Notes: generated from the sequence alone by a model not told the origin. A stretch of DNA of 64,000 nucleotides from Alphaproteobacteria bacterium (GCA_965237415.1 CBDEFM010000002.1:2080001-2144000); one strand, 5' to 3'; shown: positions 38,007 to 58,139, numbered from the stretch's first letter. Translations and numbers: made by a program.

Positions 38007-39029
38007 TCAGCCATCGGCTCGTTTGACCAGCATTTCGGCAAGCCGATCCAGCTCGTCCCCTTGATTTTCCATGATCTTGTCCGCCTCGTGCAGCAGGGCA
38101 ATGATATTAGCCCGGTGCGCGGCGTCCAGGTCGTCCAACGCATCCTCCAGACGGATATCGAAGCGGAAGTACCGCTGTTCCCGGGTGTCATCGGCGGAAT
38201 CGGGCAGCAGTTGCCGGGCATGGTAGTCCGCTGAATCAGACATGCCATCCATCATCACGGAAATAACCGGCTTGGCCCAGCCGAGCGGTCCCCAGTCTTT
38301 GGCGTCCTCGTAGGGAATTTTGCGATCGTTCATCCCGGTGCCAGCAGCACACAGGAGGATCTCGTTCATGTCGGTCCCGGAGGACAGCGCCTCCGAGAGC
38401 GCGATCATGGACGGGTTGTTCGCGAACACCCCACCGTCGACAAGCGCTCGCCGGTTGTCCTTTTCGCCTTTCCATTGCTCTTCGTCCAGAAGGAACGCCT
38501 CGAAAAAGGTCGGAGCGGCGGAGGTCGCGCGCGCAACGTGGCGGAGAAGATGGTTGCGGCCTTCCTCTCCGGCACGAGCCTTGCTGGTTTTGAACAGGTA
38601 GGGTTCGCGCTTCTCAATATCGTAGGATGTCACGATGATGTCCGGCACGGTATCCGACAGTTCCGCATCGCCCAGCATTTCATGCAGGATGCCCTCCAGT
38701 GGCGCGGCATCGTATTTTTCATCCGAAAGCCCGCCCAGGCTGGTCACCCCCTTCCAGAGAGAGCGACTGAAGATCTTGTGCCCACGCTCGGAATAGAGCT
38801 GAACCAACTCTTTTGCGGAGCACGGGCCTCCGGCTTGTCCTTTCTCCGGCCGTGCGAGGCCGGTCGCCAGGATGCCGCCGGTCGATGTGCCGACGATCAG
38901 GTCGAAGAGTTCGTGGATGCACCGTCCTGTCCGGTTTTCGAGTGCCTGCAGGACGCTGGCCGGTATCAGGCCCCGGATGCCGCCACCGTCGAGGCTCAGG
39001 ATGGTCTTGTAACCGGCTTCTTTAGCCAT
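38007..39029 (-). CDS. patatin-like phospholipase
   Basis: LSLDGGGIRG, VGTSTGG (nucleophile Ser), ATSAAPTFF, VDGGVFANNP. Confidence 0.93.
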   Translation of the reverse strand: MAKEAGYKTILSLDGGGIRGLIPASVLQALENRTGRCIHELFDLIVGTSTGGILATGLARPEKGQAGGPCSAKELVQLYSERGHKIFSRSLWKGVTSLGGLSDEKYDAAPLEGILHEMLGDAELSDTVPDIIVTSYDIEKREPYLFKTSKARAGEEGRNHLLRHVARATSAAPTFFEAFLLDEEQWKGEKDNRRALVDGGVFANNPSMIALSEALSSGTDMNEILLCAAGTGMNDRKIPYEDAKDWGPLGWAKPVISVMMDGMSDSADYHARQLLPDSADDTREQRYFRFDIRLEDALDDLDAAHRANIIALLHEADKIMENQGDELDRLAEMLVKRADG

Positions 39030-39331: not shown

Positions 39332-39532
39332 ATGAACGTGCCCATCTTAACCGTCATCGTAACTCTAAGTCTGTGTTCTCTAGCTCTTGGGGACGAGAAT
39401 CCACTGCCGGACGCTTCTGATGCTTCCAAAGCGGACAATTCCGGCACGGAGTATAAAACGCAAAGCTCTGGAACGATAGGCGATTTTTGTGACGAAAATC
39501 CGTCAGCTCCTCAGTGCCCACAGGCCCAGTAG
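39332..39532 (+). CDS. small secreted hypothetical protein
   Basis: 66 aa, signal-like N-terminus, C-terminal Cys pair, low GC. Confidence 0.4.
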   Translation: MNVPILTVIVTLSLCSLALGDENPLPDASDASKADNSGTEYKTQSSGTIGDFCDENPSAPQCPQAQ

Positions 39533-39555
39533 AAGGAAGATACAAGGGAATAATC

Positions 39556-40125
39556 ATGGCTGAACAAAATGAACAAAATGCACTTGGTAGAGTTGTACAG
39601 TGGGCAACATTGTTCGGTATTTTAATTGGTATCGCCACATTAATTTTCGCTTGGTGCGAATACAAAAGTAATCAGAATAGCGAGAGAATCAACAGAACTC
39701 TTCAGTTTTCCGAAGACTATCGCAGCGGACAATTCTTAAAAACGAGAAGGAATGTGCTTATGGTTTATCAGGATGCACGATACGATAAATCCGGCGCACG
39801 CCGCTCATGGCAAGAGAAGGTGAAGTTTATGGACGAGAGGTTAAGCGTAGGAATTGACGCCATTGACTACGGATTGACTATGGAATTTTTTGATACACTC
39901 CAGGTTTGCACAATTCAGAACATCTGTGACGAAGAATCAGCGCTCAACCTATTCTCATATGATGCGTGCTATCTCCTTAATGTATATTTTCCTTTTGTTA
40001 TAGAACGCGTGCGTAAGGATAAACTACACGCCTATGGGCTGCGGTATTTCGCTAAACGGTACATAGATGATAAAGGAGCTTCCTGCTTTGCGGAACAACA
40101 ATTACCCGACGATATAAGACTATAG
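39556..40125 (+). CDS. hypothetical protein with N-terminal membrane anchor
   Basis: Low-GC ORF with TM segment WATLFGILIGIATLIFAW followed by a helical domain. Confidence 0.65.
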   Translation: MAEQNEQNALGRVVQWATLFGILIGIATLIFAWCEYKSNQNSERINRTLQFSEDYRSGQFLKTRRNVLMVYQDARYDKSGARRSWQEKVKFMDERLSVGIDAIDYGLTMEFFDTLQVCTIQNICDEESALNLFSYDACYLLNVYFPFVIERVRKDKLHAYGLRYFAKRYIDDKGASCFAEQQLPDDIRL

Positions 40126-40544: not shown

Positions 40545-40823
40545 CTAACCGTCATTCACCGCGTCCCTGAGCGGCTTGCCCGCCCTGAATGACGGTGTCT
40601 TCGAGGCCGGTATGGAAAGCACCTCGCCGGTCTGCGGGTTGCGCCCGGTACGGGCTGCCCGGCTCCTGGCGGCAAAGGTTCCGAAACCCGCAAGCCGAAC
40701 TTCCTCGCCCTTCGCCAGAGCCTCGCCGATCGCTTCGAACACGCCGTCGACCGCATTCTTTGCCACGGCCTTGCTCAATCCCAGCCGATCGGCCAGACGA
40801 TCGCTGATATCCGACTTGTTCAT
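40545..40823 (-). CDS. hup: HU family DNA-binding protein
   Basis: MNKSDI..., GEEVRLAGFGTF, RTGRNPQTGE, PSFRAGKPLRDAVN. Confidence 0.92.
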   Translation of the reverse strand: MNKSDISDRLADRLGLSKAVAKNAVDGVFEAIGEALAKGEEVRLAGFGTFAARSRAARTGRNPQTGEVLSIPASKTPSFRAGKPLRDAVNDG

Positions 40824-41049
40824 GCTCCCGCTCCCTGAGCTCGCGGAGGCCCAGTTTCCCGAGCCTGAGTAGCACGCTACGGTGTCCGGCGCGAGGCGCG
40901 GTTTCTCTCCGGCGGTTCGCGCGCCAGAACCCGGCGCCACTTTCGATTCGGCACAGCCAGGCCGGCTGCACACCGACCGTCCACGCCGAATATGCCACCA
41001 TCATCCGTGTCTTCCGCGTTCGGCAATAGCGCAACCCGCGAAGCCGCCG

Positions 41050-41312
41050 TCATCCTGGCCCGAACAGCGCATGGATGTCCTCTTCCGTGAGCGTCAGCGC
41101 GCCCTGGCCCGTGCCCTCGAAAAAGGCGTCCGCCAGGGCTTACTTGCGAAGCTGCATCCGCTGAATGGCGGCCTCCACGGTATTTTCGGCGATCAGGCGA
41201 TCAACCAATACCGGCTTGTCCTGACCGCTCCGGTGCGCCCGGTCCATCGCCTGTCGTTCCACCGCCGGGTTCCACCACGGATCGTAGACGATCACGGTGC
41301 CGGCCGCGGTCA
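41050..41312 (-). pseudogene. SNF2-family helicase C-terminal fragment
   Basis: [37 protein letters not shown]; in-frame stop at 41140, then ALADAFF...EEDIHALF continues. Confidence 0.8.
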
Positions 41313-41598
41313 CCCGAGCAGACGCCGCAGCCGCCCGATCCGCTGGTTTCCGGGTCGACACCGATCGCATCTCATCCGCGCGCACCCGGTGCGGCATCAC
41401 GCCGCTGCCTTCCGCGGCCTGCAAGGCCGCCCCGCTTCAGCCGATCCGGCCCTCGCGCGATCGATCCTGCCTTGCCGGCTCATCCCTGCCGCCCTGCCGC
41501 CGAGAGCGAGAGGGGGGCCGTGACGCGAGCGGCGGGCGGACGTTCGGGGAAAGGGCGCGCCCGCCGTTCCCACCCACGGACCGGGAGGAGGCCGGACG

Positions 41599-41922
41599 AT
41601 GCGGATTGCCGGAGCCATTCATCGCAGCGCCAGGACGTATTTGATCCACGAGTTCGGCCACGGCCTTGCCGGCGACCGCTACGTCGTCGAAAGGTATCGC
41701 TCGCTCTCCGATGGGGAGATCCGACCCGTCCAGGCCCAGCAGCCGAAGACCAAGGGGCGGTGCAAGTCGCGGCGCACAATCGCGAGCGTGAGCACCGTCA
41801 AGCGGATGCGGCCCGAGCGCGACGAGATCATCGTCTGTACCGCGCTCAACCTCAAAGGATCTGGAATCCAGCTATGGGGCGTCGCCGCCACGGGCCTGTA
41901 CGCCGCCCGCAACGTGCGCTGA
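41599..41922 (+). CDS. hypothetical protein
   Basis: 107-aa ORF with a GGAGGAGG RBS, just upstream of the Cys-rich ORF. Confidence 0.45.
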   Translation: MRIAGAIHRSARTYLIHEFGHGLAGDRYVVERYRSLSDGEIRPVQAQQPKTKGRCKSRRTIASVSTVKRMRPERDEIIVCTALNLKGSGIQLWGVAATGLYAARNVR

Positions 41923-41936
41923 GCGGGGCGCCGATC

Positions 41937-42755
41937 ATGCCTGACCAGGACCCCGCGAAGGAACGGGCTGACGGTCGCCTTCGCCAGCGGCTGCGCCATG
42001 CCGAGCGCGTCGCACAGGGTTTGTGCACGCGATGCAGCAAGGCCCCACCGGAGCCCAACCGCAAGATGTGCCGCAGCTGCAGCGAGAAGCGGCGTGCCGC
42101 CGACCGAGCCCGTTGCGCCAAAGCCAGGGCGCAGGGTGTGCCCTACGGCGGTCGCGATCCGGTTCTGTGCCGCCATGCTGACCGCGCCGGGGACAGGCGC
42201 CGCCGCCGGGCGCGGCGCGACGCAGGACTCTGCACATCTTGCGGTCGTCACCCTCCCGCCGATGGCGGTTCCGTCTGCGATCCCTGCCGCGAGGCACGCC
42301 GCGCGTTCGACCGCCGGCGCTACGCGGCACGCAAGGCCGCCGGCGTCTGCGTGCGCTGCTGCCAGCCTGCATTGGGCGGCACATCTCGCTGTGGCCGGTG
42401 CTCGGCGCTCGAAACGGAACGCCCCTCATCCGAACGCAGGAGCGCCACTAGCAAGAAGCGCTACGCCAGACGGCGTGCAACCGGGGCATGTGTTGATTGC
42501 GGGGTGCATTCCGCTGGCTGGGCCCGCTGTCCGACCTGCTCGTACCGGTCCAATGTACGCGCGCCCATGCGTGACGGCCTGCCGGCCTGGCCGCCGTCCT
42601 ACACCGTGATCGAGCTGGAGACCGGGGTCGACCTCGGGTCGTTCGAGCATGAAGCCGAGGTGGCGGCCTGCCTCGCCTTTGCCGGCCTGCGGCCCGACCA
42701 GGTGGAAATCCGCTCGGATGCAAATCTCATGTCAATTGACGTGGCCACATCGTAG
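41937..42755 (+). CDS. Arg/Cys-rich protein with four CxxC...CxxC repeats
   Basis: CTRC/CRSC, CTSC/CDPC, CVRC/CGRC, CVDC/CPTC separated by basic helices; acidic C-terminal domain. Confidence 0.7.
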   Translation: MPDQDPAKERADGRLRQRLRHAERVAQGLCTRCSKAPPEPNRKMCRSCSEKRRAADRARCAKARAQGVPYGGRDPVLCRHADRAGDRRRRRARRDAGLCTSCGRHPPADGGSVCDPCREARRAFDRRRYAARKAAGVCVRCCQPALGGTSRCGRCSALETERPSSERRSATSKKRYARRRATGACVDCGVHSAGWARCPTCSYRSNVRAPMRDGLPAWPPSYTVIELETGVDLGSFEHEAEVAACLAFAGLRPDQVEIRSDANLMSIDVATS

Positions 42756-44291: not shown

Positions 44292-45227
44292 TCAGGCCGC
44301 CAGAATCCCCTTGAACCGACCTTCCTGTTGCTGCTGTTGCGCCTGTGGAGATGTGGGCAAGGCGCGGAGCGGCTTGTCCATCATATCCACAGGCGTCTCG
44401 CCTCGGTAGGCCTCGGCCGGGGTTCTCTCACCCAGCGCCGAGTGCGGCCTCTCGGCGTTGTAAAAGCGGAGCCATTCGCCGATCAGGCGCCGGGCGGTGA
44501 GGCCGTCGGCGATCTCGTGCAGATAGATCGCCTTGTATTTGAGCGAGCGCCACAGCCGCTCGATGAAGATATTGTCCATGCACCGGCCCCTGCCATCCAT
44601 CGAGATCCGGATGCCGGAGGCCTGCAGGCGTCCGGTGAAGACGAAGCTGGTGAACTGGCTGCCCTGGTCGGTGTTGAAGATCTCCGGCGCGCCATGCCGG
44701 GCCAGAGCCTCGTCGAGAGCCTCAACGCAGAAGCTTGCATCCAGCGTGTTCGACAGCCGCCAGGCCAGGACGTAGCGGCTCGCCCAGTCCATGATCGCCA
44801 CCAGGTAGAGGAAGCCGCGGCTCACCGGGATGTAGGTGATGTCGGCGCACCAGACATGGTTCGCCCGTTCGATCGCCAAGCCCCTGAGCAGGTAGGGCCA
44901 GACCCGGTGCTCGGGGTGGGGCGCGCTGGTCCGTGGCGCCCGATAGACCGCCTGAAGCCCCATCAGGCGCATCAGACGACCGGCCCGGCGGCGGCCGATG
45001 TACACGCCTTCGCGGCGCAGATGACGGACCATCTGGCGGGCGCCGTAAAACGGGTACTTCAGGAACAGCTCGTCGACCCGCCGCATCAGTGCCAGCGTCT
45101 CCGCGCTCTCCCCCTTCGGCTCGTAGTAGAGCGACGAGCGCCCGATCGACAGCAGGCGGCATTGCCGGCTCAGGCTCAGCGCCGGGTGATCGCGCACCGC
45201 CAGCGCGCGGCGTTCCGACCGGCTCAT
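44292..45227 (-). CDS. IS3-family transposase OrfB (DDE)
   Basis: WCADITY, AIMDWASR, NTDQGSQFTS, DNIFIERLWRSLK, YNAERPHSAL. Confidence 0.92.
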   Translation of the reverse strand: MSRSERRALAVRDHPALSLSRQCRLLSIGRSSLYYEPKGESAETLALMRRVDELFLKYPFYGARQMVRHLRREGVYIGRRRAGRLMRLMGLQAVYRAPRTSAPHPEHRVWPYLLRGLAIERANHVWCADITYIPVSRGFLYLVAIMDWASRYVLAWRLSNTLDASFCVEALDEALARHGAPEIFNTDQGSQFTSFVFTGRLQASGIRISMDGRGRCMDNIFIERLWRSLKYKAIYLHEIADGLTARRLIGEWLRFYNAERPHSALGERTPAEAYRGETPVDMMDKPLRALPTSPQAQQQQQEGRFKGILAA

Positions 45228-45508
45228 CGACCCGATCCGCGTGACAAAATATCCCGCTCAACGATCAGCTCCCCGATCTTCGCGTGAAGATCGCGGACCT
45301 CGCCCTCATGATCCCGGGCCCGACCCTCGGCGCCCTTCGAGAACACCTCGCCAAGCCCCTCGATCGCCTGGCGCTTCCAGGCGCCCACCTGGTTCGGGTG
45401 AACCTGGTATTTCGAAGCGATCTCCTGCAGCGTCCGGTCGCCCCGAAGCGCCTCAAGCGCCACCTTCGCCTTCAGTTCCCCTGAAAACCTGCGTCGCTTG
45501 CTACTCAT
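45224..45508 (-). CDS. IS3-family transposase OrfA (HTH)
   Basis: RRRFSGELKAKVALEAL..TLQEIASKYQVHPNQV..WK; ATGA overlap with orfB. Confidence 0.9.
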   Translation of the reverse strand: MSSKRRRFSGELKAKVALEALRGDRTLQEIASKYQVHPNQVGAWKRQAIEGLGEVFSKGAEGRARDHEGEVRDLHAKIGELIVERDILSRGSGR

Positions 45509-45574
45509 CTGTATCCCTCCGTCAAGCGGTGGAATACACCTTATCGACCTGTCCGATTTTCCGGGGCCACCTCA

Positions 45575-45666
45575 GACCCGGCTGCACGAGCTCCTACCCT
45601 GGCACTGGAAGGCTGATCTCGAGCAGGCCCTCGCCGCATAGCCTGCGGCCCCCGCCGGATGCTTAC
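45575..45666 (+). mobile_element. IS66 remnant (transposase C-terminus plus right end)
   Basis: RLHELLPWHWKADLEQALAA* followed by CCGGATGCTTAC. Confidence 0.8.
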
Positions 45667-45670
45667 CACT

Positions 45671-46300
45671 CTATTGCAATGCCTGCGGATTATTCGCCAA
45701 GTATCGCCACATTACGACATCCACGACACTTCTTGGCTCACCAGTCACTCTCGAAATCTCTCTACACACCTCAAATGCGTCCTTGAAACCGAACTTTTTC
45801 GCCAACCGTGACAAGTGTCGATCAGGCTTTACAACGTCCAATCCCAAGTTTTTAGCCAAGTGCCAAGTCGTTATTGGTCCAATTTGAGGAAATTTTCGAA
45901 ACTCCGTTATAGGATCCCTTTCTATAGATTCTCTAACTGCGTCGAATCCCTCCGCATACACACGGCGCGCTATATCGAGTATAGCCGCAAGTTTCCGCTC
46001 GTTTCTAAACGCGCTCCTAGCGCAAATGCGACATATCGGGTCTGCCTCTACGATCGCCTCCGCAGACTCCCAGTCACAAAAGCATAAGGACACATATCCA
46101 AATCGCTCGCGAATGATTCTCTCACTAAATCCGGAACAAAGAACAACCCATGCCGTCTCCCTCAACAAGTCTGTCTCCGTGAAACTCGCGAACTGCAAGT
46201 TTCTCTGCCACTTTACCTCGTGCCTCCACTCTTCCCTGCTCGAATACCACGAAGCATCCGCAAAAAAAAGAAGCGCCCCCCTCAAATCAGCCTTTCTCAT
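45671..46300 (-). CDS. OGG/HhH-type N-glycosylase/DNA lyase-like protein (type IV CBASS Cap11-like)
   Basis: AWVVLCSGF, FPQIGPITTWHLAKNLG, VKPDRHL, VVDVVMW. Confidence 0.75.
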   Translation of the reverse strand: MRKADLRGALLFFADASWYSSREEWRHEVKWQRNLQFASFTETDLLRETAWVVLCSGFSERIIRERFGYVSLCFCDWESAEAIVEADPICRICARSAFRNERKLAAILDIARRVYAEGFDAVRESIERDPITEFRKFPQIGPITTWHLAKNLGLDVVKPDRHLSRLAKKFGFKDAFEVCREISRVTGEPRSVVDVVMWRYLANNPQALQ

Positions 46301-46880
46301 GTTTGCCCCTTTTGACGTTATCCTTCCACCAAAACTTCATTTTTGTCATCACTAGAGATGCTGACGGGTGAGAGTCGAGGTGCCTGCTCAGTGCGATTTT
46401 TCTCAAATGTCTGCGCTTTTGTGGCAAGAAATCTGCCTCCGAAACTGCTTCTCCAACGGCCCCCGCCAAATCGTACTGCGCCAAGACTCGCCGTATCGCC
46501 GACTCATCACGGTTGCTAGCAGTCAATATATAACCTGCTTCCCGTTTCACCGCCGCATACAGTTCGAACGTCCGTCTGTGAGCATTCGCCCTGCCCATCC
46601 AATCGACCTTCAGTTGTATGAGCGTCAGCATGAAGGTCGCGAAGCCCAATAAACCCATCCAGATCCTATCATTCATATCAAATGGCGTGAGCTGAAAGCC
46701 AATTTGTGGTTCGACAAAAGCCAACGCGACCAGCCACAGAGCTATAGCGAGCCTTGCAACGTCAAGGGTTAGTGCTCGCCGCTGATACCTGTCGCGCAAA
46801 CCCGCGTGAGCACTACAAAGCATATCTGAAACCCGCCTTACTCGCGCAAGCTCTGCATAAATATCTGCGCACTCGCTCAT
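46287..46880 (-). CDS. two-TM SLATT-like effector
   Basis: AHAGLRDRY then two hydrophobic segments, DW..RANAH; ATGA-coupled to the nucleotidyltransferase. Confidence 0.7.
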   Translation of the reverse strand: MSECADIYAELARVRRVSDMLCSAHAGLRDRYQRRALTLDVARLAIALWLVALAFVEPQIGFQLTPFDMNDRIWMGLLGFATFMLTLIQLKVDWMGRANAHRRTFELYAAVKREAGYILTASNRDESAIRRVLAQYDLAGAVGEAVSEADFLPQKRRHLRKIALSRHLDSHPSASLVMTKMKFWWKDNVKRGKHEKG

Positions 46881-47821
46881 TCATCCAATCCAAACAGCGC
46901 TCGCCACTGCGCCAAAGATCTAGCAGCAGTCGCATTTCTCATTCTTCGGGCAATTCTGCCCAACAAATGGCTCGCTGCCTTTCGTTCCGGACTCTCAGCT
47001 GCACCGAGATACCCGTCCACATGAACTGACTGTCCTGTGCTATCCCTTATGGGCCTCAATACGAACTCACGTGCCCGTTCAAAAAACTCTGGGAGCATCG
47101 CTGCAGTCGATTTCACACCACTATAGTTGCGAAATATAGAGATAGCAAGAGATTCAGTGTGATAACCACTTAATCTACGTGTCTCTGGTAGTTGACCTAT
47201 AACTGCCTTTATCAATTTAATGGTTGGCACTAGCTTGCCGCCACATTCCGCATTGCGCCGTGTAAGAGCTTCCTGAAATTTTTGTGGATCAATCAACGAC
47301 CACGAATTTCGATCTCTTGAAGAGGGAACCTGAAACTTCCCGTCCGCTGTACGCAGCGCCGGAAGTAGCTGAACTACCACACCATCACCATAGTCTAGCG
47401 TTACTGCCATTTGACCAACAGACACAGTGGCTAGTCCACGTAGCTCCTGGGACAAGATATCCCGCATCCGCACAAGCGCTTCCCTAGGTGCCTCGTTCAT
47501 TAGGCCACTCTCGTTAATCAGCAGTAACGAGTCGATGTCACTAAGCCCGTTTACGTATGTATGTTTTGCTACAGAACCACCATAAAGGTGCTCAAATGGT
47601 CCTCTTAGTGCGTCACCCAACAGTTCGCTCAGCCCATCCAGCAACTCTCGCGCGGTCTCAGTGTCGCGCGCGTTATACTGACCCAACAGCTCCCCCAACC
47701 CAACGGCCAACTCAGTGTCGAACGCCACGTCCCTTGTTTTGTCTTCTTCCTTGCGAACCTGCTCACGCAATGCCGCTGGGCTTCGGTAGACGAATGCACC
47801 ACCACTGCCGCTTCCGCCCAT
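46877..47821 (-). CDS. CD-NTase / SMODS-type nucleotidyltransferase (CBASS cyclase)
   Basis: GGSVAKHTYVNGLSDID, VQLLPA, LVPTIKLIK, LSGYHTESL; start reassigned to MGGSGSGG, 1 nt after the upstream stop, with a GGAG RBS. Confidence 0.85.
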   Translation of the reverse strand: MGGSGSGGAFVYRSPAALREQVRKEEDKTRDVAFDTELAVGLGELLGQYNARDTETARELLDGLSELLGDALRGPFEHLYGGSVAKHTYVNGLSDIDSLLLINESGLMNEAPREALVRMRDILSQELRGLATVSVGQMAVTLDYGDGVVVQLLPALRTADGKFQVPSSRDRNSWSLIDPQKFQEALTRRNAECGGKLVPTIKLIKAVIGQLPETRRLSGYHTESLAISIFRNYSGVKSTAAMLPEFFERAREFVLRPIRDSTGQSVHVDGYLGAAESPERKAASHLLGRIARRMRNATAARSLAQWRALFGLDE

Positions 47822-47822
47822 A

Positions 47823-48794
47823 TCACTCTCCAACTTCTTCCATGACGCTTTCCAGGGATTGCCGGAAAAGGTCTCGGTGATGCCCAAATACATTGGGGTC
47901 GTGATCCTGCAAGTACCGGCGCATCTCTAACTCTAGTTCTCTTATATAGTAGTAGTTATCGTTCCAACAGCGTCCATCAATTACGTGCGCCTTCGTAGTC
48001 ACACCATATTTTACTGCTCCGTAGTTGTGCTTATATACTGTGTAGCCGTCACTAAAGGCGAACCGCAACCAGGTTAACCCATCGAATATATCCGCCCCGG
48101 CCAAAAAGTATAAGGGCGTAGTAACGGTGTCAAGACTGCCAAACACGTGTATGGGTGTCTCTAAATCAACCTTGGTGAGAGCAAGACGCAGACGAGCTAT
48201 ATTTTTCATTCGATCAAGAATGGAATTGCCTACCTCCTTCTCAGTCACCCCAATAACATCGAATTCGCCTAGCTGGCGGACATGATCTATTACGCTTTGA
48301 ATCTTTAACAGTGTTTGCCCACCGGTTTCAGGCTTAAAAAGAACTTCCCTGAGACAGTCCCCCTGGGGTAGCTCCATTTGAAGCGCACGTTCAATTTGTG
48401 ACTTTACCGGCAGCCGCTCATCAGGGTGATCATAGCTTATAATCACAGTAGGCACGCCGGACCTCCACTTGGTCAACTCGCTAGCGTGCATTTCTTGTGA
48501 CCAGAGCTTAGGAATATGCTCCCTGTCGCCAAAGTCTGAGAGCTCTCGGTCCTTCGACGCCTCGTAACCCCCACTGTCCAAAAAAATGAGAGAAGGAAAA
48601 TTTAATGATGGAAGCCGCTGTTCGTAATAGAGGTCGTATGCACTAACCAAGGTAGCGCCATCAATAAGTTCAGAGCTGTATTCCACAATTTTATGAATGT
48701 CAAGGAATCCCTTACTCGAAAACGACGGGACAAGAAGGGGAGTTCTTTCAACCTCCATGTTGTGCAGCTTCAAACTGCGGCGTTGTGCTAGCAT
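47823..48794 (-). CDS. tRNA-guanine transglycosylase (TGT)-like protein (Cap10-like)
   Basis: TPLLVPSFSSKG, IFLDSGGYE, PIHVFGSLD, AGADIFDGLTW. Confidence 0.8.
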   Translation of the reverse strand: MLAQRRSLKLHNMEVERTPLLVPSFSSKGFLDIHKIVEYSSELIDGATLVSAYDLYYEQRLPSLNFPSLIFLDSGGYEASKDRELSDFGDREHIPKLWSQEMHASELTKWRSGVPTVIISYDHPDERLPVKSQIERALQMELPQGDCLREVLFKPETGGQTLLKIQSVIDHVRQLGEFDVIGVTEKEVGNSILDRMKNIARLRLALTKVDLETPIHVFGSLDTVTTPLYFLAGADIFDGLTWLRFAFSDGYTVYKHNYGAVKYGVTTKAHVIDGRCWNDNYYYIRELELEMRRYLQDHDPNVFGHHRDLFRQSLESVMEEVGE

Positions 48795-49408
48795 CCGAGC
48801 ATGCTTCGGTCATGACAAGACAGGCATGTTCCGCAAGGAGGTTCTGCTCCTGCTTCACAACTATATGTTTGGTCAATCGGAAGGTCGGAGTTGCAAAAAT
48901 AGGAGAAAATATCTGACTTCGACCACGTAACAAAAGGTGCAACAACAGTAACACGACCGTCGGTATGTTCCTTGATTACCCTATCGATGCTATCAATGAA
49001 ACTCTTGGAACAGTCATAATAGGGTGTACCAGAATGCACTCCGATGGAGAGAAGCTGAGTTCGAAAATTGTTGGAAAAGAGTGCCAGAAATAGAAACAAG
49101 GCGTTGCGCCCAAGCAGTTCCCCGGGGCCCGAGCGTGAGAGCCCGCTCACCGACAAGACACGAAATGGTATAGACAGAAACGTAGAGATTGACCTTGCTG
49201 ACCTAAGTTCAGGTCTACTCGCGGCTTGTCCGTAATCGATGAATAGGGCGTCCACAGAATAATTCTGTTGGAGCAAATAGTGCGCGCAGCAGGTTGAATC
49301 TATACCACCGCTCAGGAGGACCGTCGCTGATGCTTGTTCCTTCAAGGCGTATTCCTTCGCGCATCCCTTTGCATGTACAGTTGAAGCATTCGCTTCTGGA
49401 TCAGCCAA
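48788..49408 (-). CDS. QueC-like PP-loop protein (Cap9-like)
   Basis: VLLSGGIDS, FIDYGQ, GRNALFL, YYDC, TYSC...PCGTCLSC Zn site; start uncertain. Confidence 0.88.
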   Translation of the reverse strand: MADPEANASTVHAKGCAKEYALKEQASATVLLSGGIDSTCCAHYLLQQNYSVDALFIDYGQAASRPELRSARSISTFLSIPFRVLSVSGLSRSGPGELLGRNALFLFLALFSNNFRTQLLSIGVHSGTPYYDCSKSFIDSIDRVIKEHTDGRVTVVAPFVTWSKSDIFSYFCNSDLPIDQTYSCEAGAEPPCGTCLSCHDRSMLGC

Positions 49409-50224
49409 GCGTTGACGCTGCGGGTAGAAAAAACCCGAAGTGACGATGCTCTCCTATTAAGCTATCCAACGCTGGCGATGGGGCCCGGGCCAGATGCGCA
49501 GTGAGGTGTGATCACTCGATGTCACTGCCACGCCGAACTCGTAGTTCAGGGAGAGACTGGACTTCCGCTTCGGGCCCCCGCTCATGGGGACCTCTCAGGG
49601 TCTGTTGCGAATCTAGTGTGGCTACTACATCAAGCACGCCTCTGCCTGCAAGCTAGTATCTAGAGCACAGAGCGGCCTAGCGTCACGTGGACGGGGAGCA
49701 CGAGGAAGCGGCTCGGCAAAGGATAGCCTGGTTGTGTCCACCCGCTTCCCACACGGACCACGGCACCCACGAGCTGCTGTCAACGCAACCACGGTATCCT
49801 GCCCTGTCCGCCGCAGCCATCGCGTTCATGGTTGGAGTATTGCAACCATCTCTTCGCGCCATTTGCGGTCATCATGACTGCGCGCTCCGAGAGGATCCAC
49901 TCAACCAACTGGTGCGGCGCGGCTTTTGCCAATCTCATGCGGCGTTGCCCTGCAAATCGGAAAACTCTCGGCAAGCGCTCCGCAAGCGACGCGATTCCAA
50001 GGTGTGCGCGTCCATGACACACACGGCGGCCCACCCTGAACGCATCGACCCTACTGTTAGGTGTCAACGGCAGTGTGAACGCGCGCCAGTGCGGCAGCTG
50101 AGGTACGGGAACGACGCCCCGAGACCCATCGAATTCGGCTTGTTCGACACGGGGCTTCTCCTCCTCTCCCTCGGGCGCCCTTGCCCCGGACGACATTCCT
50201 GGCCTGGTCCCACCGGCAGATCAT

Positions 50225-50551
50225 TCAATCGCCGATGGGCGGCGAGCACGGCGCGGGGTTCATCACCATCACGTCCTGCTCCTGAATTGCGTCGAGCGCC
50301 CAGACCGAGCTGATGAAGGCCTGCCACGCGGGGTCCGCGCTCATCGCGGCCCGCTGCTTCTCGCGATCGGCGAGGCTGTCGTAGGCCCAGATCAGGACGA
50401 TCCGGTGGAGCCGGCCGATTTCGGAGACGTAAAGCCCGACGAAGCGGCCGAGGTGGCGCTTCTGGATGGGGAGGCCTTCCGCCTCGTACTTCTTGAGCCA
50501 GCCGTCCACCGTGCCGGGACGGAAGGTGTAGGTCCGGTGCTCGACGATCAT
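50225..50551 (-). CDS. NIPSNAP family protein
   Basis: IVEHRTYTFRPG, IWAYDSLADREKQRAAM..DPAW; overlaps the GMC stop. Confidence 0.88.
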   Translation of the reverse strand: MIVEHRTYTFRPGTVDGWLKKYEAEGLPIQKRHLGRFVGLYVSEIGRLHRIVLIWAYDSLADREKQRAAMSADPAWQAFISSVWALDAIQEQDVMVMNPAPCSPPIGD

Positions 50552-52206
50552 TCCTGGGTCCCTTCTGATGATGCTTGGGCTACGGCTAGCGCGAGGATGA
50601 ACTCGGCCGCCTTCTCGCCGATCATGATGGTTGGTGCGTTGGTGTTGCCGCTGACGATGACGGGCATGACCGACGCATCCGCAACCCTGAGCCCCGTGAC
50701 GCCGTGGACCGCGAGTCTCGCGTCCACCACCGCCATCGGGTCCGTGCCCATGCGGCAGGTACCGACGGGATGGAAAGTCGTCATCGCATTGACGCGCAGC
50801 CACGCGGCGAGCTCGCCGTCGCTCTTGACCGCGTCGCCGGGCGCGAGCTCGCGCCCGCGATAGGCGGCGAAGGCCGGCTGCGCGATGACGTCGCGAACCA
50901 TGCGAATGCCCGCGATCGTCGTCCGGCAATCGGCCTCGTCCTGCAGATAGTTGGGCTGGATCAGTGGCGGCGCGGCTGAATCGGCGGAGCGCAGCCCGAT
51001 CCACCCCCTGCTCGCGGGATTGATCGGGCCCACGCGCAGGCTAAAGCCGTGGGTCTCCTCGAGCGGCGGCTTCCTGAACGGCTTGGGGAAGTGCAGTTCG
51101 GCCGCATTCTCCAGCGCCGGCATGAAGTGCACCTGGACATCCGGCGCCAGCAGGTCCGGCCGGGTCTTGAGGAACGCGCCGGCCTCGTAGGGGAAGGTGG
51201 TGGCGATGCCGCGGCCGAACAGCATCCCCGCGATCACGGAGCCGATCAGCCTGTCCGCCCGCAGGTTGCGGTGGAGGGTGATCGGCTGCGTGCACGCATA
51301 GGCGATGACGCAGTCGACATGATCCTGGAGATTGCGGCCGACGCCGGGCAGGTCGTGGAGCACGGGGATGCCGTGCCGCTTCAGCTCGTCCACGGGTCCG
51401 ATCCCAGAGAGCATGAGGAGCTGGGGCGAGTTGACCGTGCCGGCACAGAGGATGACCTCGCGCTCGGCACGAATGGTCCGCGCGTCGGTTCCCTGCGCGA
51501 ACTCGACCCCCGTCGCACGGCCTCCCTCGACAACCACGCGCCGCACCAGACTCTCGGTAGCGATCGCCAGATTGCGCCGATGCCGGATCGGGCGTAGGAA
51601 GGCCGCCGAGGCGGAGCAGCGCTTGCCCCGCCTGATGGTGAAGTCGTAGCGGCCGAACCCCTGCTGCTCCGCGCCGTTGAAGTCATCGTTGACGGGATGG
51701 CCGGTCTGGCGGCCCGCCTCCACGAACGCGTCGAAGAGCGGATTGGCGCCGCGCGCGCGGCAGACGGTGAGCTCGCCCGCGCGCCCGTGATAGGCGCCGT
51801 CGCGCTCGGCATGCCCTTCGGAACGGCAAAAGGCTGGCAGCACGTCGTCGTAGGACCATCCGGCAAGGCCCATTTGCGCCCACCGGTCATAGTCGTGGCG
51901 GTTGCCGCGCACGTAGATCATGCCGTTGATGGTTGACGAGCCGCCCAGCACCTTGCCGCGCGGCCAGTAGAGCGAGCGGCCACCGAGGCTTGGCACCGGC
52001 TCGGTGTGGTAGCGCCAGTTGTAGATGCCGGAGTGGAACAGCTTGCCCATCAGCATCGGCAACCGGAACAGGGGGTTGCGGTCCTTGCCGCCGGCCTCGA
52101 CCAGCAGCACGGAGCATTCGGGATCGGCAGAGAGCCGGTTCGCGAGCACGCATCCCGCCGAGCCAGCGCCGACAATGACGTAGTCGAAGGCGCGCTCCCG
52201 CGGCAT
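50548..52206 (-). CDS. GMC-family FAD oxidoreductase (choline dehydrogenase-like)
   Basis: [52 protein letters not shown]. Confidence 0.93.
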   Translation of the reverse strand: MPRERAFDYVIVGAGSAGCVLANRLSADPECSVLLVEAGGKDRNPLFRLPMLMGKLFHSGIYNWRYHTEPVPSLGGRSLYWPRGKVLGGSSTINGMIYVRGNRHDYDRWAQMGLAGWSYDDVLPAFCRSEGHAERDGAYHGRAGELTVCRARGANPLFDAFVEAGRQTGHPVNDDFNGAEQQGFGRYDFTIRRGKRCSASAAFLRPIRHRRNLAIATESLVRRVVVEGGRATGVEFAQGTDARTIRAEREVILCAGTVNSPQLLMLSGIGPVDELKRHGIPVLHDLPGVGRNLQDHVDCVIAYACTQPITLHRNLRADRLIGSVIAGMLFGRGIATTFPYEAGAFLKTRPDLLAPDVQVHFMPALENAAELHFPKPFRKPPLEETHGFSLRVGPINPASRGWIGLRSADSAAPPLIQPNYLQDEADCRTTIAGIRMVRDVIAQPAFAAYRGRELAPGDAVKSDGELAAWLRVNAMTTFHPVGTCRMGTDPMAVVDARLAVHGVTGLRVADASVMPVIVSGNTNAPTIMIGEKAAEFILALAVAQASSEGTQE

Positions 52207-52209
52207 CGA

Positions 52210-53061
52210 CTACCAGTCCACCGCCGCGCCCATCGCCTGGAGGCGCCGGTTGCAGAGCGTGAACGGGTTCTCTTTCGCGAGGACCTCGTCGGCTTCAGCG
52301 GGGTGCGGGCGGAGGATGACGCGCCCTGCGGCGCTTGCATCCGTCTCGCCAAGGCCTGCCGCCGCGAGCGTCTCAGCCGCCGTATCGCCGAAGCCGATAA
52401 AGATGACCGGCGCGTCCTGCGCTGCGAGATGACTGAGAACCCGGACCAGCAGCGGACGCCAGAGAGGCAGGTGCCCGCGCACCTGATGCGGATCGCCCTC
52501 GCGTTGGAATCGGGTCAGCGTGAGCGAGGAGTTGAGGAGCAACACACCGGACGCCACCCACCGATCGACCAGAGCGCCGGGCGCTTCCAACTCGACCGCG
52601 CCGCCTTCAATGGCCGCGAGCGTCGCCGGCCACCGCGCGAAGCCTTCGGCGTAGTGCGCCGCGCCCGTTCGCTCCGCGACCACTAGCTGGATCACCGCGC
52701 GCACGCTGGGGGAAAACATCTTGTCCAGCTCTCGCCAGCGAGCGACGTTGCCGGCCTCGAAGGCCCGCCCTGTCGAGAACGCGGGGCACGGATAGGGGTC
52801 CTGGCCCAGGATCACGCAGCGCACATCTTCGGGCGGGAGATTGTCGAAGACGCGGAGCATGTGCGCGCCCGCCGGTGCACCCGGAAACGTCCGGCCTCGC
52901 CGGGCGGGAAATATCGGCTCCCAAGGCTCGAGTTCGAGCGTGGCGTCCACATCCTCGAAGCCCAGCGCGACATCGCCGATGAGGCGGCGCCAGGGCGCGT
53001 CTATGTCCTCGTGCCAGTCCTGAAGCGTCTCCCGAAGCGCCGGTCTCAGTTGCATCGCCAT
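52210..53061 (-). CDS. divergent uracil-DNA glycosylase family-1-like protein
   Basis: VRCVILGQDPYP, GRAF, GVLLLNSSLT, HPA, NPF..CN..L...VDW. Confidence 0.8.
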   Translation of the reverse strand: MAMQLRPALRETLQDWHEDIDAPWRRLIGDVALGFEDVDATLELEPWEPIFPARRGRTFPGAPAGAHMLRVFDNLPPEDVRCVILGQDPYPCPAFSTGRAFEAGNVARWRELDKMFSPSVRAVIQLVVAERTGAAHYAEGFARWPATLAAIEGGAVELEAPGALVDRWVASGVLLLNSSLTLTRFQREGDPHQVRGHLPLWRPLLVRVLSHLAAQDAPVIFIGFGDTAAETLAAAGLGETDASAAGRVILRPHPAEADEVLAKENPFTLCNRRLQAMGAAVDW

Positions 53062-53094
53062 GGGGTCCGCTCGCTCCCCTACATCGACATGAAC

Positions 53095-53142
53095 TGACGC
53101 GTGTGTCATGTTCCGCGTTTCGGGAACTTGACACGCGCGTCA
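53095..53142. promoter_or_regulatory. paired TGAC-N6-GTCA operator-like palindromes
   Basis: TGACGCGTGTGTCA (53095-53108) and TGACACGCGCGTCA (53129-53142), 34 bp start to start. Confidence 0.65.
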
Positions 53143-53453
53143 CGCTATTTGGCCCATATTTTCCTAACAATCATAGCGTACTCCACTTTCTACCGTTTTG
53201 CGTTGGTACGCAGTATCTCGTAAGCATGTCGTCGGCGGATTCATTGCAACGCCTGCGCTTTCCTGCGTGCTTTGGTGGCCGCAGCCTGACGATCCTTGTG
53301 GTAGGGCGAATAGGTTCCGTTGGGCCGTGGTGAGGCCCTTGATTTAGCGATTTGAGAGTTCGCTTTCAGTCCCTCCGGAGGGGCCGCAGACAGATGCCCT
53401 TGCCGGAAAACCGTCTGCAACGCAAGTCGGATGCACTGTGTACGCCGTAGTCC

Positions 53454-54737
53454 TTACTCCGCTGGGATTTCCGTTGGACATGCGTAGGTCGCGCAGGGTT
53501 TATTGTCGTGGCTCTTGCAGTAATTGACAGCCGTTGCGAAGTCGATGTCCTTGCCAAAGCACTCGTTGCTGTCAATTCTAGCCTGAGCGCAAAAAGTCAA
53601 ATCGTCTTGAGGAGAGCGATTTGTTACCCATTTTTCCTTGCAATTAGCCAGGGTCGTATCGGGGTCGGCATCCGGATTCGCCGATATGGCCTGTGTCCAG
53701 CATGCGATCTGCATGTCGACCTCTTCGTCCGTTAACAGATCGTGGGAGTCACAACTCGAGCTGGTGTCTCCGGGGCAACACTGATAGGTCGTCAAATCGG
53801 GATGGTTACCCAGTATGTAGGGAGTTGGTTTGCTCGCTCCTGGGATCGTTGCCGTACCGGTTTTCAAAACCTCCTCGCCCGTGCCGGTGATCGTGTTCCA
53901 TTCCTCACGTGCTGACGTACCCAGGACGACGACAGGAAGCGTGTGCTTGTGTGTACTCGACTCTGGGTTCGGATCAACCGTCAACGAGAGCTGCGGATTT
54001 ATGTAATAGCCACCGGTTGTCAGCGTTTTGTCATTGAAATACTTCTGGGCATCGGGCAGATTTTCGGTAGTGCCGCTTCCCGGCGCGGCGATCGGCCGAA
54101 TGTCGACTATCGTTTCATAAAGCGTAGGGTCTTCGATACCAACTGCCTTAAGAACGTTACTCCATCGATTCATAGTGAAATTGTTGAGGTAGTCTTTCTC
54201 TGTAAGAGCGTCAGTGGGAGGATAGTTCAACATCAACACCGACCGTTGCATGACCATTGGCAGGCCGAGTGGTGCAAGAAAGGCCCAAGGTTCGTCCTTG
54301 TGGGTGTTGTTCTTGTTCCAGCAGTTGTCGGTATTCATGCATTTCTCAGCGCCGACATTGGCGGAGATGAAGTTATCAACGGACTTGGGGTGCACGGTTG
54401 AATACAAAGACGCGTTTGAATCACTGGTCGCGATAGTGACAACATAGGCCGGTAGTGAGCCATCAAACTCGACTGTAACGGAGTCGAACGTGATTCCATC
54501 AAGTGTTAGAGAATTCTTGGTAAAGAGTTCAATAGACTTCTCAACGGTAATTCCTTCGTAGTACTCCTTATACGGTGCAGGTACCGAATCTTCGGTTGGA
54601 TAAGCAATGTCTGTTTCGTCAGCTAGATTATAGGTTACGCTGTCCTCTGCTCGAACCTCCTGCCAAGATGGCTGCAAATGACCAATTGCGGCAATTGAGA
54701 GAACCAGTCCGACTTTGAGAATTCGAGAGTGATACAT
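53454..54737 (-). CDS. secreted low-GC hypothetical protein with Cys-rich C-terminus
   Basis: Signal peptide, GGAGG RBS, 427 aa, many Cys in the last ~110 aa. Confidence 0.8.
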   Translation of the reverse strand: MYHSRILKVGLVLSIAAIGHLQPSWQEVRAEDSVTYNLADETDIAYPTEDSVPAPYKEYYEGITVEKSIELFTKNSLTLDGITFDSVTVEFDGSLPAYVVTIATSDSNASLYSTVHPKSVDNFISANVGAEKCMNTDNCWNKNNTHKDEPWAFLAPLGLPMVMQRSVLMLNYPPTDALTEKDYLNNFTMNRWSNVLKAVGIEDPTLYETIVDIRPIAAPGSGTTENLPDAQKYFNDKTLTTGGYYINPQLSLTVDPNPESSTHKHTLPVVVLGTSAREEWNTITGTGEEVLKTGTATIPGASKPTPYILGNHPDLTTYQCCPGDTSSSCDSHDLLTDEEVDMQIACWTQAISANPDADPDTTLANCKEKWVTNRSPQDDLTFCAQARIDSNECFGKDIDFATAVNYCKSHDNKPCATYACPTEIPAE

Positions 54738-54939: not shown

Positions 54940-55490
54940 GCACGGTGGTGGCGATGCCGCGGCCGAACAGCATCTCCGCGATCACGGAACCGATCAGCCT
55001 GTCCGCCCGCAGGTTGCGGTGGAGGGTGATCGGCTGCGTGCACGCATAGGCGATGACGCAGTCGACATGGTCCTGGAGGTTGCGTCCAACGCCGGGGAGC
55101 TCGTGGATCACCTCGATGCCGTGCCGCTTCAACTCGTCTCCGGGCCCGATTCCAGAAAGCATGAGGAGCTGGGGCGAGTTGACGGTGCCGGCACAGAGGA
55201 AGACCTCGCGCTCGGCGCGGATGGTGCGCGCGCGCCCTGGGCGCCCTCGACCCCGGTCGTGCGTCCCCCTCGACGACGACTCGCTGCACCAGGCTATCAG
55301 TGAGGATCGCCAGATCGCGCCGAGTTCGGATCGGGTCGAGGAAGGCAGTGGAGGCAGCGCAGCGCTTGCCCCGCCTGATGGTGAAGTCGTAGCAGCCGAA
55401 GCCCTGCTGCTCGGGCCCATTGAAGTCGTCGTTCACAGCCTGCCAGCCCTCAAGCGTCTGCCGCAGCGCCGTTCTCAGTTGCATAGCCAT
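54940..55490 (-). pseudogene. deleted duplicate of the UNG-like/GMC operon (fusion remnant)
   Basis: MAMQLRTALRQTLEGWQ (UNG-like start) joined directly to [14 protein letters not shown] (mid-GMC), then a frameshift; similarity to the intact GMC ends after GRGIATT. Confidence 0.85.
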
Positions 55491-55569: not shown

Positions 55570-55740
55570 ATGTTTTTCTGGCCTGCCATGAGAGACATGA
55601 AAGGCCGCGGTCGGGATGTCGGTGAGGTGGTTACGAAACAACCAGCATTGCATCACCGCTCCCGCAGGCGGGCCGTCCCGGATCGCAGGAAGTCGCGGCG
55701 GGCCGTTCCTTCATCCGGCTTATGCATCAAGGAGGCTTCG

Positions 55741-56910
55741 ATGAGAGACACCGACAAGACGAAGAGGGCCGACCGCACTGGCCTTACCGTGAACCGGCGG
55801 ACCCTGCTGAAGGGGGGCGCTGCGGCGGCGGGCGCGGCGGCGGCGGGCTCGCTCACCATCTTCTCGCGCACGGCGCGTGCTGCCGACACACTACGGGTGC
55901 TGTGTTGGCCGGGCTATGAAGAGAAGGACGTGATCCAGGAGTTCGAGGACACGCACGGCGTCAAGGTCGAGTTCAAGATCTATATCGGCGGCGAACAGAT
56001 GCTGCAGTTCTTCAATCAGACGCCGCGCGGAACCTACGACAACGTCCTGGCGGACGCCGAGTATGTCCGTAAGCTTGCGGCTATCGATGCGATCGAGACC
56101 TACAACCCGGGCGAGGTGCCCGAACTCGCCAACTACCACCCGAAATTCAACAGCATGCACCAGGTGCAGGCGGGAGACGGGATGGTCTGGGGCACGCCGA
56201 CGCGCTTCAGCTTCTACGCCATCTCGTATAACTCGGATCACATGAGCTTCGAGGAGAGCGGCGACTGGAACTCGCTGTTCCTGCCCAAGTTCGAGGGCAA
56301 GATCGGCATCTTCGACTGGTACTTGCCGAACATGGGCAATGCGAGTCTCGCGGTTCATCCCAACAAGGAGAACCCCTACGACCTGACCGACGAACAGCTC
56401 GGCGCCGTCCGCGACTGGCTGCTGAAGCTTAGGCCCCAGGTCAACATGTTCGGCTCCGGCGCCCAGGCCATCGTGCAGGCGATGATCAACGGCGATGTCG
56501 TCGCGGGGATGATCGGCGACCTCGACATCGACCTGAAACTCGCAGGCTACACGAACATGGAATCGACCATTCCTGTACAGGGCGGCATCCGCTGGCAGGA
56601 AGTGGCCACCATGTGCAAGCAGAGCGAGAACAAGGAGCTGGCGCTGGAGTGGATCAAACACATGAGCCAGGCCCACATCCAGGCCCGGCTCGCCTACACC
56701 AAGGCGTTCAAGGCCCGCGGCCCCAACCTTAAGATCGCCGACTACTGGACGGAGGAGCAGAATCAGCTCCTGGGCTACTATCCCGATCCCAACAACCCCA
56801 GCCAGATGTGGGTGGAGACGCTGATTGACCGCAGCGTTGGCCGCGACCTTCCGGTGCAGCAGGACGAGAAGGCGTGGATCGACATCTTCAACGAGTTCAA
56901 GACGGGCTAA
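55741..56910 (+). CDS. ABC transporter substrate-binding protein (PotD/PotF-like), Tat signal
   Basis: NRRTLLKGG Tat motif, LRVLCWPGY, FEDTHGVKV. Confidence 0.88.
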   Translation: MRDTDKTKRADRTGLTVNRRTLLKGGAAAAGAAAAGSLTIFSRTARAADTLRVLCWPGYEEKDVIQEFEDTHGVKVEFKIYIGGEQMLQFFNQTPRGTYDNVLADAEYVRKLAAIDAIETYNPGEVPELANYHPKFNSMHQVQAGDGMVWGTPTRFSFYAISYNSDHMSFEESGDWNSLFLPKFEGKIGIFDWYLPNMGNASLAVHPNKENPYDLTDEQLGAVRDWLLKLRPQVNMFGSGAQAIVQAMINGDVVAGMIGDLDIDLKLAGYTNMESTIPVQGGIRWQEVATMCKQSENKELALEWIKHMSQAHIQARLAYTKAFKARGPNLKIADYWTEEQNQLLGYYPDPNNPSQMWVETLIDRSVGRDLPVQQDEKAWIDIFNEFKTG

Positions 56911-57005
56911 ATCGCCGCAGCCCGGTACATATCGAGGGGGCGGACCGCCGGCGCGACAGCGCGCCGGCGCCGCCACATGCCTGATCCTCACGAGCCTGGC
57001 CGACG

Positions 57006-58139
<1,134 letters not shown>

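Follow-up and report, generated by a model that had tools for sequence, protein, structure and literature searches.

The closest described relative of the locus considered here is a type IV CBASS (an anti-phage signalling system based on cyclic oligonucleotides) of the Rhizobiales, in which the five genes Cap9-Cap10-CdnD-2TM-Cap11 follow one another and for which structures are available in the PDB (9NTN, 9NTO; Wassarman et al., bioRxiv 10.1101/2025.04.06.647259). As far as the available text of the preprint describes it, this homologue confers cyclase-dependent phage protection in E. coli with an NDG adduct on the cyclase, and mutants indicate that defence needs the catalytic residues of Cap9, Cap10 and CdnD as well as Gly2 of CdnD. 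The same text argues for a parallel priming logic in type II CBASS, where the E1/E2-like Cap2 primes the C-terminus of the CD-NTase, while in QatABCD the QueC-like QatC is described as acting on the N-terminal glycine of QatB (PMC13279940, in the part consulted). Here a 64,000-nucleotide stretch of DNA from an Alphaproteobacteria bacterium (GCA_965237415.1, CBDEFM010000002.1:2080001-2144000), henceforth the window and numbered from its first letter, was analysed, in which positions 45671-49408 of the minus strand hold five homologous genes. We consider that an alphaproteobacterium has gained here, by horizontal transfer, a complete type IV CBASS operon against phages, which is expected to work as the Rhizobiales system does (probability of about 0.85). 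It is an operon of an already characterised kind and not a new system, as the mechanism has been solved for an alphaproteobacterial operon with 40-55% identity.

Gene content, conserved residues and foreign origin of the operon

The initial annotation, made from the sequence alone, had proposed a QueC-like protein, a tRNA-guanine transglycosylase (TGT)-like protein, a CD-NTase, a two-transmembrane-helix (2TM) effector and an 8-oxoguanine glycosylase (OGG)-like protein. PADLOC and hidden Markov model (HMM) searches matched all five nearly end to end, with E-values between 4.9e-62 and 2.8e-121, the models being QueC for Cap9 (PDLC00911; 1e-73), TGT for Cap10 (PDLC00913; 2.8e-121), the oligonucleotide cyclase for the CD-NTase (PDLC00790; 2.6e-111), PDLC00681 for the 2TM effector (4.9e-62) and OGG for Cap11 (PDLC00910; 1.7e-79). 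Among PDB sequences, the chains named Cap9 (9nto_B; 3.5e-61), Cap10 (9ntn_A; 4.1e-105) and CdnD (9ntn_G; 8.5e-100) by their depositors were matched, and the name CdnD is taken here from the last of these, which is 55% identical. The nucleotidyltransferase groups with the CD-NTases, matching the 9NTN CdnD and the CBASS-cyclase models above cut-off, including NCBIfam CBASS_cyclase_b (NF041117; 262 bits, cut-off 200) and Pfam SMODS (PF18144; 32.3 bits, cut-off 26.5). Cap9 is furthermore matched by Pfam QueC (1.5e-29) and, at 102 bits, falls under the cut-off of 150.3 of the NCBIfam QueC equivalog (TIGR00364), while Cap10 showed no match to any Pfam or NCBIfam TGT model. Every motif that had been named for the five proteins was found again in the translations.

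The translations of the Rhizobiales bacterium Ga0077537 locus (L024) equal the alignment text of 9NTN/9NTO, and this locus is therefore treated as the operon characterised by Wassarman et al.; BLASTP identities between it and the window are 51% for Cap9, 52% for Cap10, 55% for CdnD, 40% for the 2TM effector and 53% for Cap11. Residues were mapped by hand from the printed alignments, with the numbering of Wassarman et al. as reference and Cap9 numbered in its 206-aa open reading frame (ORF). All residues required for defence are retained (D95/D97 and G2 in CdnD, D73 and D238 in Cap10, S33 and S38 in Cap9), as are the base-reading residues S74, D122, K154 and H216 of Cap10 and R101, Y130 and D132 of Cap9. 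In Cap9, S33/D37/S38, L98, R101 and Y130/D132 correspond to S18/D22/S23, L83, R86 and Y115/D117 of the reference; SGGIDS occupies positions 33-38 and the Zn-cysteine motif CE(x)6CxxCxxCxD is present. All five Cap9 signature motifs given in the consulted part of PMC13082051 (SGGxDS, Y/FxQ(x)5E, RN, H(x)4YxDCxxxF with PF(x)4K, and CE(x)6CxxCxxCxD) can be read in the window protein. Cap10 carries D73-S74-G-G-Y and IHVFG with H216; D73, S74, D122 and K154 bear the same numbers in the model, while H216 and D238 equal H226 and D248. Among 24 relatives D73, D122, K154, H216 and D238 are invariant and S74 nearly so, and the Cap10 family extends to 2882 relatives at E<=0.001 among clusters of 90% identity, most of them metagenome proteins without a name. 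The metal site of CdnD reads G82-S83 ... D95-I-D97, with D95/D97 equal to D94/D96 of the 9NTN CdnD. Its N-terminus, MGGSGSGG, keeps Gly2 and fits five of the six positions of M(G/S)G(G/S)GG, the deazaguanylation site according to the available preprint text (bioRxiv 10.1101/2025.04.06.647259). A start followed by [GS]G[GSA], a simple pattern, was found in 65/78 CD-NTase loci, MGGSGG occurring 38 times.

The coordinates and junctions of five co-oriented, low-GC ORFs with overlapping or abutting stops and starts were reproduced from the sequence (Table 1). The ATG of Cap10 lies within the last codons of Cap9 and overlaps its TAG (ATGCTAG), a single base separates the Cap10 TGA from the CdnD ATG (47821), which is preceded by GGAG, the CdnD TGA and the ATG of the 2TM gene share ATGA, and the 2TM gene runs 14 nt into Cap11. 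For Cap9, the stop and frame given initially stood, but not the start at 49408. The TTG at 49345 is most likely the start, judging from the sequence, since AAGGAA lies 7 nt upstream, alignment to the family models (PADLOC, PDB chain) sets in around residue 21-24 of the long ORF, and the resulting 185 aa, against 206 aa from the TTG at 49408, fit the median Cap9 length of ~185 residues stated in the available part of PMC13082051. The deposited Cap10 product (P0001) has 311 aa (96% coverage), while the PDB chain and the relatives have 12 more residues at the start; this gene call is probably too short, with the true start probably at the ATG overlapping the Cap9 stop.

Related loci were collected by a profile scan with one genome per species, which yielded 128 encoding loci, and in the best 80 of these the gene order was established by tblastn with the five window proteins, some of the incomplete orders coming from contigs that are short or cut. 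The full order Cap9>Cap10>CdnD>2TM>Cap11 occurs in 45/80 loci and Cap9>Cap10>CdnD>Cap11 in 18/80. The other 17 show Cap9>Cap10>CdnD (seven), Cap9>Cap10>CdnD>2TM (four), Cap9>Cap10 (two), and, once each, Cap10>CdnD>2TM>Cap11, Cap10>CdnD>2TM, Cap11 on the opposite strand and the 2TM gene in first position. With the five families holding and their order conserved in relatives, the initial description of a complete type IV CBASS-like operon is upheld; neither of the objections named at the outset, a nucleotidyltransferase outside the CD-NTases and a gene order not conserved in homologous loci, was borne out. The initial annotation had this class first noted mainly in archaea and Firmicutes, but an alphaproteobacterial host is not unusual for type IV CBASS: of the best 80 loci, 20 have an alphaproteobacterial record name, and the characterised operon itself comes from a Rhizobiales metagenome-assembled genome (MAG).

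No homologue of the window 2TM effector was detected by tblastn in 18/80 loci (L018, L031, L032, L033, L035, L037, L039, L051, L052, L061, L064, L065, L066, L069, L074, L075, L077 and L081). In most of these Cap11 starts within ~150 nt of the CD-NTase match, the gaps in L064, L075 and L077 being 300-650 nt. On this sequence evidence such loci must, it would seem, rely on a different or distant effector.

The operon is foreign to its host, as had been proposed. Its genes have a GC content of 0.475-0.515 and a third-position GC content (GC3) of 0.47-0.55, whereas neighbouring host genes have a GC3 of 0.8-0.9, the flanks a GC content of 0.65-0.70 and the genome one of 0.667. Cap10 was found in 0/40 relatives of the host, 20 of them species of the same genus. 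Horizontal acquisition follows from this difference (~0.49 against 0.667), the absence of Cap10 from these relatives and the IS3 element alongside. The alphaproteobacterial setting is borne out by the host TopA (23683-26304), which shares 89% identity with a protein named 'Rhodospirillales bacterium'.

Predicted mechanism and deazaguanine supply in the host

The 2TM effector has two hydrophobic stretches, at ~35-64 and 72-92 (windows starting at 35-46 and 72-74), and an all-helical AlphaFold2 (AF2) model (pLDDT 95), for which Foldseek against the PDB returned nothing beyond helical-bundle noise (best E 0.11). Against NCBIfam SLATT the window protein reaches 25.3 bits, below the cut-off of 55; 33 of 35 members of its family match NCBIfam SLATT_4 at E<=0.01 (best 4.5e-13). 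For Cap11, the family profile matches archaeal-type 8-oxoguanine glycosylases among PDB sequences (E 3.4e-4), and the AF2 model (pLDDT 97) has the HhH-GPD fold, its best Foldseek matches being MjOgg (3KNT), TM1821 (3N0U) and SsOgg (3FHG) with TM-scores of 0.53-0.57, E ~2e-3 and 14-21% identity. Cap11 contains an HhH-like loop and K158-P-D160-R-H162, and across 50 sequences D160 of KPDRH, K150, H147 and eleven other residues are invariant, while the position aligned with the Schiff-base lysine of Ogg2 is V/I/A/T in 50/50. As the catalytic Asp is kept and the lyase Lys is missing, Cap11 is predicted to have a hydrolytic, non-lyase glycosylase-like activity, which is compatible with the proposal in the available preprint text that Cap11 reverses the base transfer (Wassarman et al., bioRxiv 10.1101/2025.04.06.647259).

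For the biochemical steps, the signal molecule, the action of the effector and the role of Cap11, we infer a course like that of the Rhizobiales system. Cap9, with ATP, would activate 7-carboxy-7-deazaguanine (CDG) and ligate it, once Met1 of the CD-NTase has been removed, to the free amine of Gly2, giving the NDG modification. Cap10, a TGT fold remodelled for protein instead of tRNA, would bind the NDG-tagged tail and hold the cyclase in an inactive 2:2 complex. Upon infection Cap10 would presumably pass the tag to a target and release the cyclase, which would then produce a cyclic (oligo)nucleotide to which the putatively SLATT-type two-helix membrane protein would respond with membrane damage (abortive infection). 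Cap11 would probably be a negative regulator that removes the base.

The first of these steps has to be set against the metabolism of the host. According to the available texts, Cap9 requires CDG, which is made by FolE, QueD and QueE (bioRxiv 10.1101/2025.04.06.647259; PMC13082051; PMC13279940). The host genome that was searched comprises 4,748,686 bases in 2 contigs, holds no N and is 96% complete. HMM searches of it gave no match to QueD (PF01242, TIGR03367), to QueE (TIGR04508, TIGR04322, each of which detects 9/14 control genomes) or to QueF, and Cap9 was the sole QueC match. When the host was searched by tblastn with the ORFs of the QueD-QueE-QueC cluster of a relative of the same order and the QueD-QueE pair of a relative of the same class, only QueC gave a match, to Cap9 at 27% identity. 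Since QueC, QueD, QueE and QueF thus went undetected, no known route to CDG is apparent, and the host appears, on its gene content, unable to make the deazaguanine base that Cap9 needs. The gap is a trait of the host's family, in which QueD and QueE were found in 0/24 genomes each, while QueE occurs in 5/5 genomes of the sister family. With Tgt, QueA, QueG and a YhhQ-type transporter retained (Table 1) and QueC/D/E/F not found, the host and its family look like preQ1 salvagers. The initial proposal of an intact system using deazaguanine chemistry accordingly stands for the genes, but for the deazaguanine substrate no route is apparent in the host.

These results of the searches for QueC, QueD, QueE and QueF weigh against a system working here as in the Rhizobiales, and three further points fall on the same side. 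In E. coli, as the available preprint text reports, defence disappeared and toxicity rose when Cap9-dependent tagging was lost (bioRxiv 10.1101/2025.04.06.647259), so that without a supply of CDG the system may not work in this host. The N-terminus of CdnD begins MGGSGS instead of the modal MGGSGG, a form that it shares with 3/65 motif-bearing loci. At the published Cap10-CdnD interface, R23, H285, R289, R292 (K to R) and N296 of CdnD are kept but two of the seven residues differ (R15 to A16, S18 to R19), and on the Cap10 side E38 and D45 are kept but two of the four differ (D42 to E42, D65 to N65). Function in this host is not assured; CDG would need a source other than the cell's own metabolism.

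The same gap occurs in other carriers. Among the 80 type IV CBASS genomes, 61 have a QueE-like match and 65 a PTPS/QueD match, and neither QueD nor QueE was matched in 13 (L003, L004, L008, L011, L023, L027, L030, L036, L038, L045, L049, L076 and L080), nine of them MAGs, which may be incomplete, and four isolate assemblies. A QueE-like match is present in 10/20 CBASS genomes with an alphaproteobacterial record name, five of these being Bradyrhizobium, and in 97/301 genomes sampled from the class to which the host belongs. No link between type IV CBASS and QueE is claimed, as the samples are not comparable and the relatives not independent. The literature searched, of which some texts were available in part and from which the journal version and supplements stand aside, yielded no discussion of the source of CDG in type IV CBASS hosts.

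An operon that is functional on imported deazaguanine, with CDG or a convertible precursor scavenged through the YhhQ-type transporter or another carrier, is a tentative explanation to which we give somewhat less than an even chance. The precursor-salvager pattern of the host favours it. Moreover, aligning 74 of the 80 related loci with MAFFT showed the ATP- and CDG-binding residues of Cap9 to be invariant in the 14 loci whose genomes lack QueE, and invariant or almost so in the other 60. However, we know of no enzyme that turns preQ1 into CDG, and with QueF not found even the handling of preQ0 is not indicated. CDG uptake is likewise not described in the available part of the YhhQ paper (PMC5372724), and none surfaced in the literature search.

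It is rather doubtful, but conceivable, that the operon is a genuine type IV CBASS which is inert or merely poised, having arrived recently in a CDG-less lineage where CdnD is never deazaguanylated and no defence results. The lack of QueC, QueD, QueE and QueF matches in the host, the 0/24 counts for QueD and QueE in its family, the still strongly foreign composition and the occurrence of Cap10 in 0/40 relatives would all agree with such an arrival, and deletion of Cap9 abolished defence in E. coli according to the accessible preprint text (bioRxiv 10.1101/2025.04.06.647259). Yet the five ORFs are intact with all required residues kept, the untagged system is reported in the same text to be more toxic in E. 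coli, which would favour rapid loss, and the recurrence of the QueD/QueE gap in 13/80 carriers, four of them isolates, suggests that the combination is tolerated or useful.

Many phages carry the FolE-QueD-QueE deazaguanine pathway to modify their own DNA against restriction. In CDG-less hosts the availability of CDG could act as the gate of type IV CBASS, leaving the cyclase untagged until CDG arrives from the surroundings or from such a phage pathway, although we regard this as improbable. Were it true, Cap9 would be a sensor of a phage counter-defence metabolite, beyond a housekeeping primer; of scavenged CDG, inert arrival and phage-made CDG, the last is the least likely and the most interesting. 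Finally, a cluster for deazaguanine modification of nucleic acid or for queuosine (QueC, TGT and a glycosylase) instead of defence signalling is extremely unlikely, since, for all that the Pfam and NCBIfam QueC models match Cap9 (the latter below its cut-off, 102 against 150 bits) and a DpdE-like helicase fragment lies 4 kb away, Cap10 matches the CBASS-specific PADLOC model and the PDB Cap10 and no Pfam or NCBIfam TGT model, a canonical Tgt is encoded elsewhere in the genome, the operon includes, in overlapping frames, a CD-NTase and a membrane effector, and QueD/QueE genes that would feed biosynthesis were not found.

The annotation of this type IV CBASS operon is in itself routine, adding one more intact system 40-55% identical to an operon with published structures and genetics. 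Its value lies in the host context, as the published mechanism needs CDG and was established in CDG-making E. coli, while QueD and QueE went unmatched in the host, in its family and in 13/80 other carriers. If the operon works in CDG-less hosts, the source of the deazaguanine becomes a testable question on how defence is primed; if it fails there, such loci would indicate that metabolism restricts how far a defence system can spread horizontally.

Genomic surroundings of the operon

The operon lies in a mosaic stretch of ~30.4-55.5 kb that also holds the IS3 element, an IS256-type transposase fragment, an IS66 transposase, a DruA-like gene, an HU gene and a helicase fragment. Orthologues of the left (28335-30376) and right (55570-58139) core flanks occur in same-genus genomes hundreds of kb apart (e.g. 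G005, G003, G002, G012); as they are not adjacent in relatives, neither a simple insertion site nor an empty site could be defined. Positions 45560-50134 are single copy in the genome. A 4336-base contig covering 45548-49883 with 0-2 differences is present in two runs of one study, and a third run has perfect pieces of this region at depth 2; the contig ends at the insertion sequence (IS) and near 49.85 kb. No consensus sigma-70 site was found at 49346-50224, and in a scan for sigma-70 sites and terminators the number of sites did not exceed that of shuffled sequence.

Table 1. Coordinates of the operon genes, the adjacent elements and the host genes of queuosine metabolism and transport (window positions, or positions on host contig C2 where so marked)
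Feature	Position	Strand	Remarks
Cap9, QueC-like ATP-dependent ligase (predicted)	48788..49345	-	185 aa from TTG at 49345 (long ORF to 49408)
Cap10, TGT-like, predicted binder of the deazaguanylated CdnD N-terminus	47823..48794	-	323 aa
CD-NTase (CdnD-like cyclase)	46877..47821	-	314 aa; ORF runs to 47893, family start at 47821
2TM effector, putative SLATT-type domain	46287..46880	-	197 aa
Cap11, OGG-like HhH-GPD glycosylase homologue	45671..46300	-	209 aa
Upstream non-coding stretch, presumed promoter and leader	49346..50224	-	no convincing ORF; promoter role presumed
IS3-family insertion sequence	44292..45559	-	Pfam HTH_Tnp_1, rve/rve_3/HTH_21; end near 45559, ~110 nt downstream of the Cap11 stop
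IS3 orfA and orfB	orfA 45224-45508; orfB 44292-45227	-	part of the IS3 element
Tgt	C2:1260527-1261597		present, 476 bits
QueA	C2:1261627-1262625		present
QueG	C2:2481741-2482739		present
Vut_1/YhhQ-type transporter	C2:2895723-2896139		present

A patatin-like phospholipase gene (38007-39029, minus strand) matches PADLOC models of CBASS phospholipase effectors (PDLC00758, 8.7e-73). A second CBASS around this CapV-like phospholipase was considered and rejected, as the genome has no second SMODS/CD-NTase gene beyond an 18.9-bit match, and the gene is either an orphan CapV-like effector or a stand-alone patatin. At 41140-41424 (minus strand) a 94-aa C-terminal fragment of an SNF2 helicase is encoded, with its best match to DpdE of the Dpd 7-deazaguanine DNA modification/restriction system (PDLC02842, 1.1e-25); it may be the remnant of another defence system. 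A ~210-bp repeat (78% identical; 37736-37949 and 40818-41023), which may be an IS end or an element resembling a miniature inverted-repeat transposable element (MITE), flanks the segment with the patatin gene, a low-GC ORF and the HU gene. The ORF at 39514-40125 (plus strand, low GC) encodes a 203-aa protein with one hydrophobic helix, and that at 53454-54737 (minus strand, low GC) a 427-aa Cys-rich protein with a hydrophobic N-terminus, neither with a Pfam or PADLOC match. A putative 427-aa Arg- and Cys-rich ORF with many CxxC pairs and no family match lies at 41472-42755 (plus strand), its DNA being weakly similar (64-67%) to C1:627151-628761.

Next to the operon, the block of NIPSNAP, GMC oxidoreductase and 299-aa genes at 50230-53150 is an 83% copy of C2:2690425-2693348, and a truncated 87% copy of part of this block (54944-55436) is fused to the start of a copy of the 299-aa gene. 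Further to the left, a 302-aa ORF without Pfam or PADLOC match is present in two copies (30765-31673 and 35508-36416, plus strand), which bracket the DruA-like gene (31832-32821) and the IS66 transposase (32710-35271), and 36000-36537 is 100% identical to 31257-31794.

Comparison with known systems

With the Ogg2-type glycosylase/apurinic-apyrimidinic (AP) lyases (3KNT, 3FHG, 3N0U), Cap11 shares the HhH-GPD fold and a catalytic Asp in a DRH context. The likeness is weak, and Cap11 differs from them at the lysine position, so that AP-lyase chemistry is not expected of it. The logic in common with type II CBASS is that covalent priming by an accessory enzyme readies the cyclase to be attached to a target; the chemistry and the end of the protein are, however, different, and a PADLOC search found no Cap2/Cap3 homologues in the window operon. 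QatABCD resembles the system in that a QueC-family enzyme works on an N-terminal MG... motif, but in QatC the Tyr/Asp of CDG recognition are replaced by Thr/Thr, as described in the consulted part of PMC13279940, whereas the window Cap9 keeps Y130/D132. Moreover, QatABCD includes an ATPase and a TatD partner, neither of which is present in the window locus, which has a CD-NTase instead.

The Rhizobiales L024 operon is the nearest counterpart. Its proteins are only 40-55% identical to those of the window, its CdnD starts MGGSGGSF instead of MGGSGSGG, and four interface residues differ. It is neighboured by a long upstream ORF, whereas IS elements neighbour the window operon; reading this ORF by eye, with no family search, we take it to be restriction-modification-like. 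The L024 genome also has QueD and a partial QueE match, of which the window host has neither. Nevertheless, both operons have the five genes on a single strand and in identical order, both have a Cap9 of minimal length, and in both the CdnD begins with a Gly-rich N-terminus that includes Gly2.

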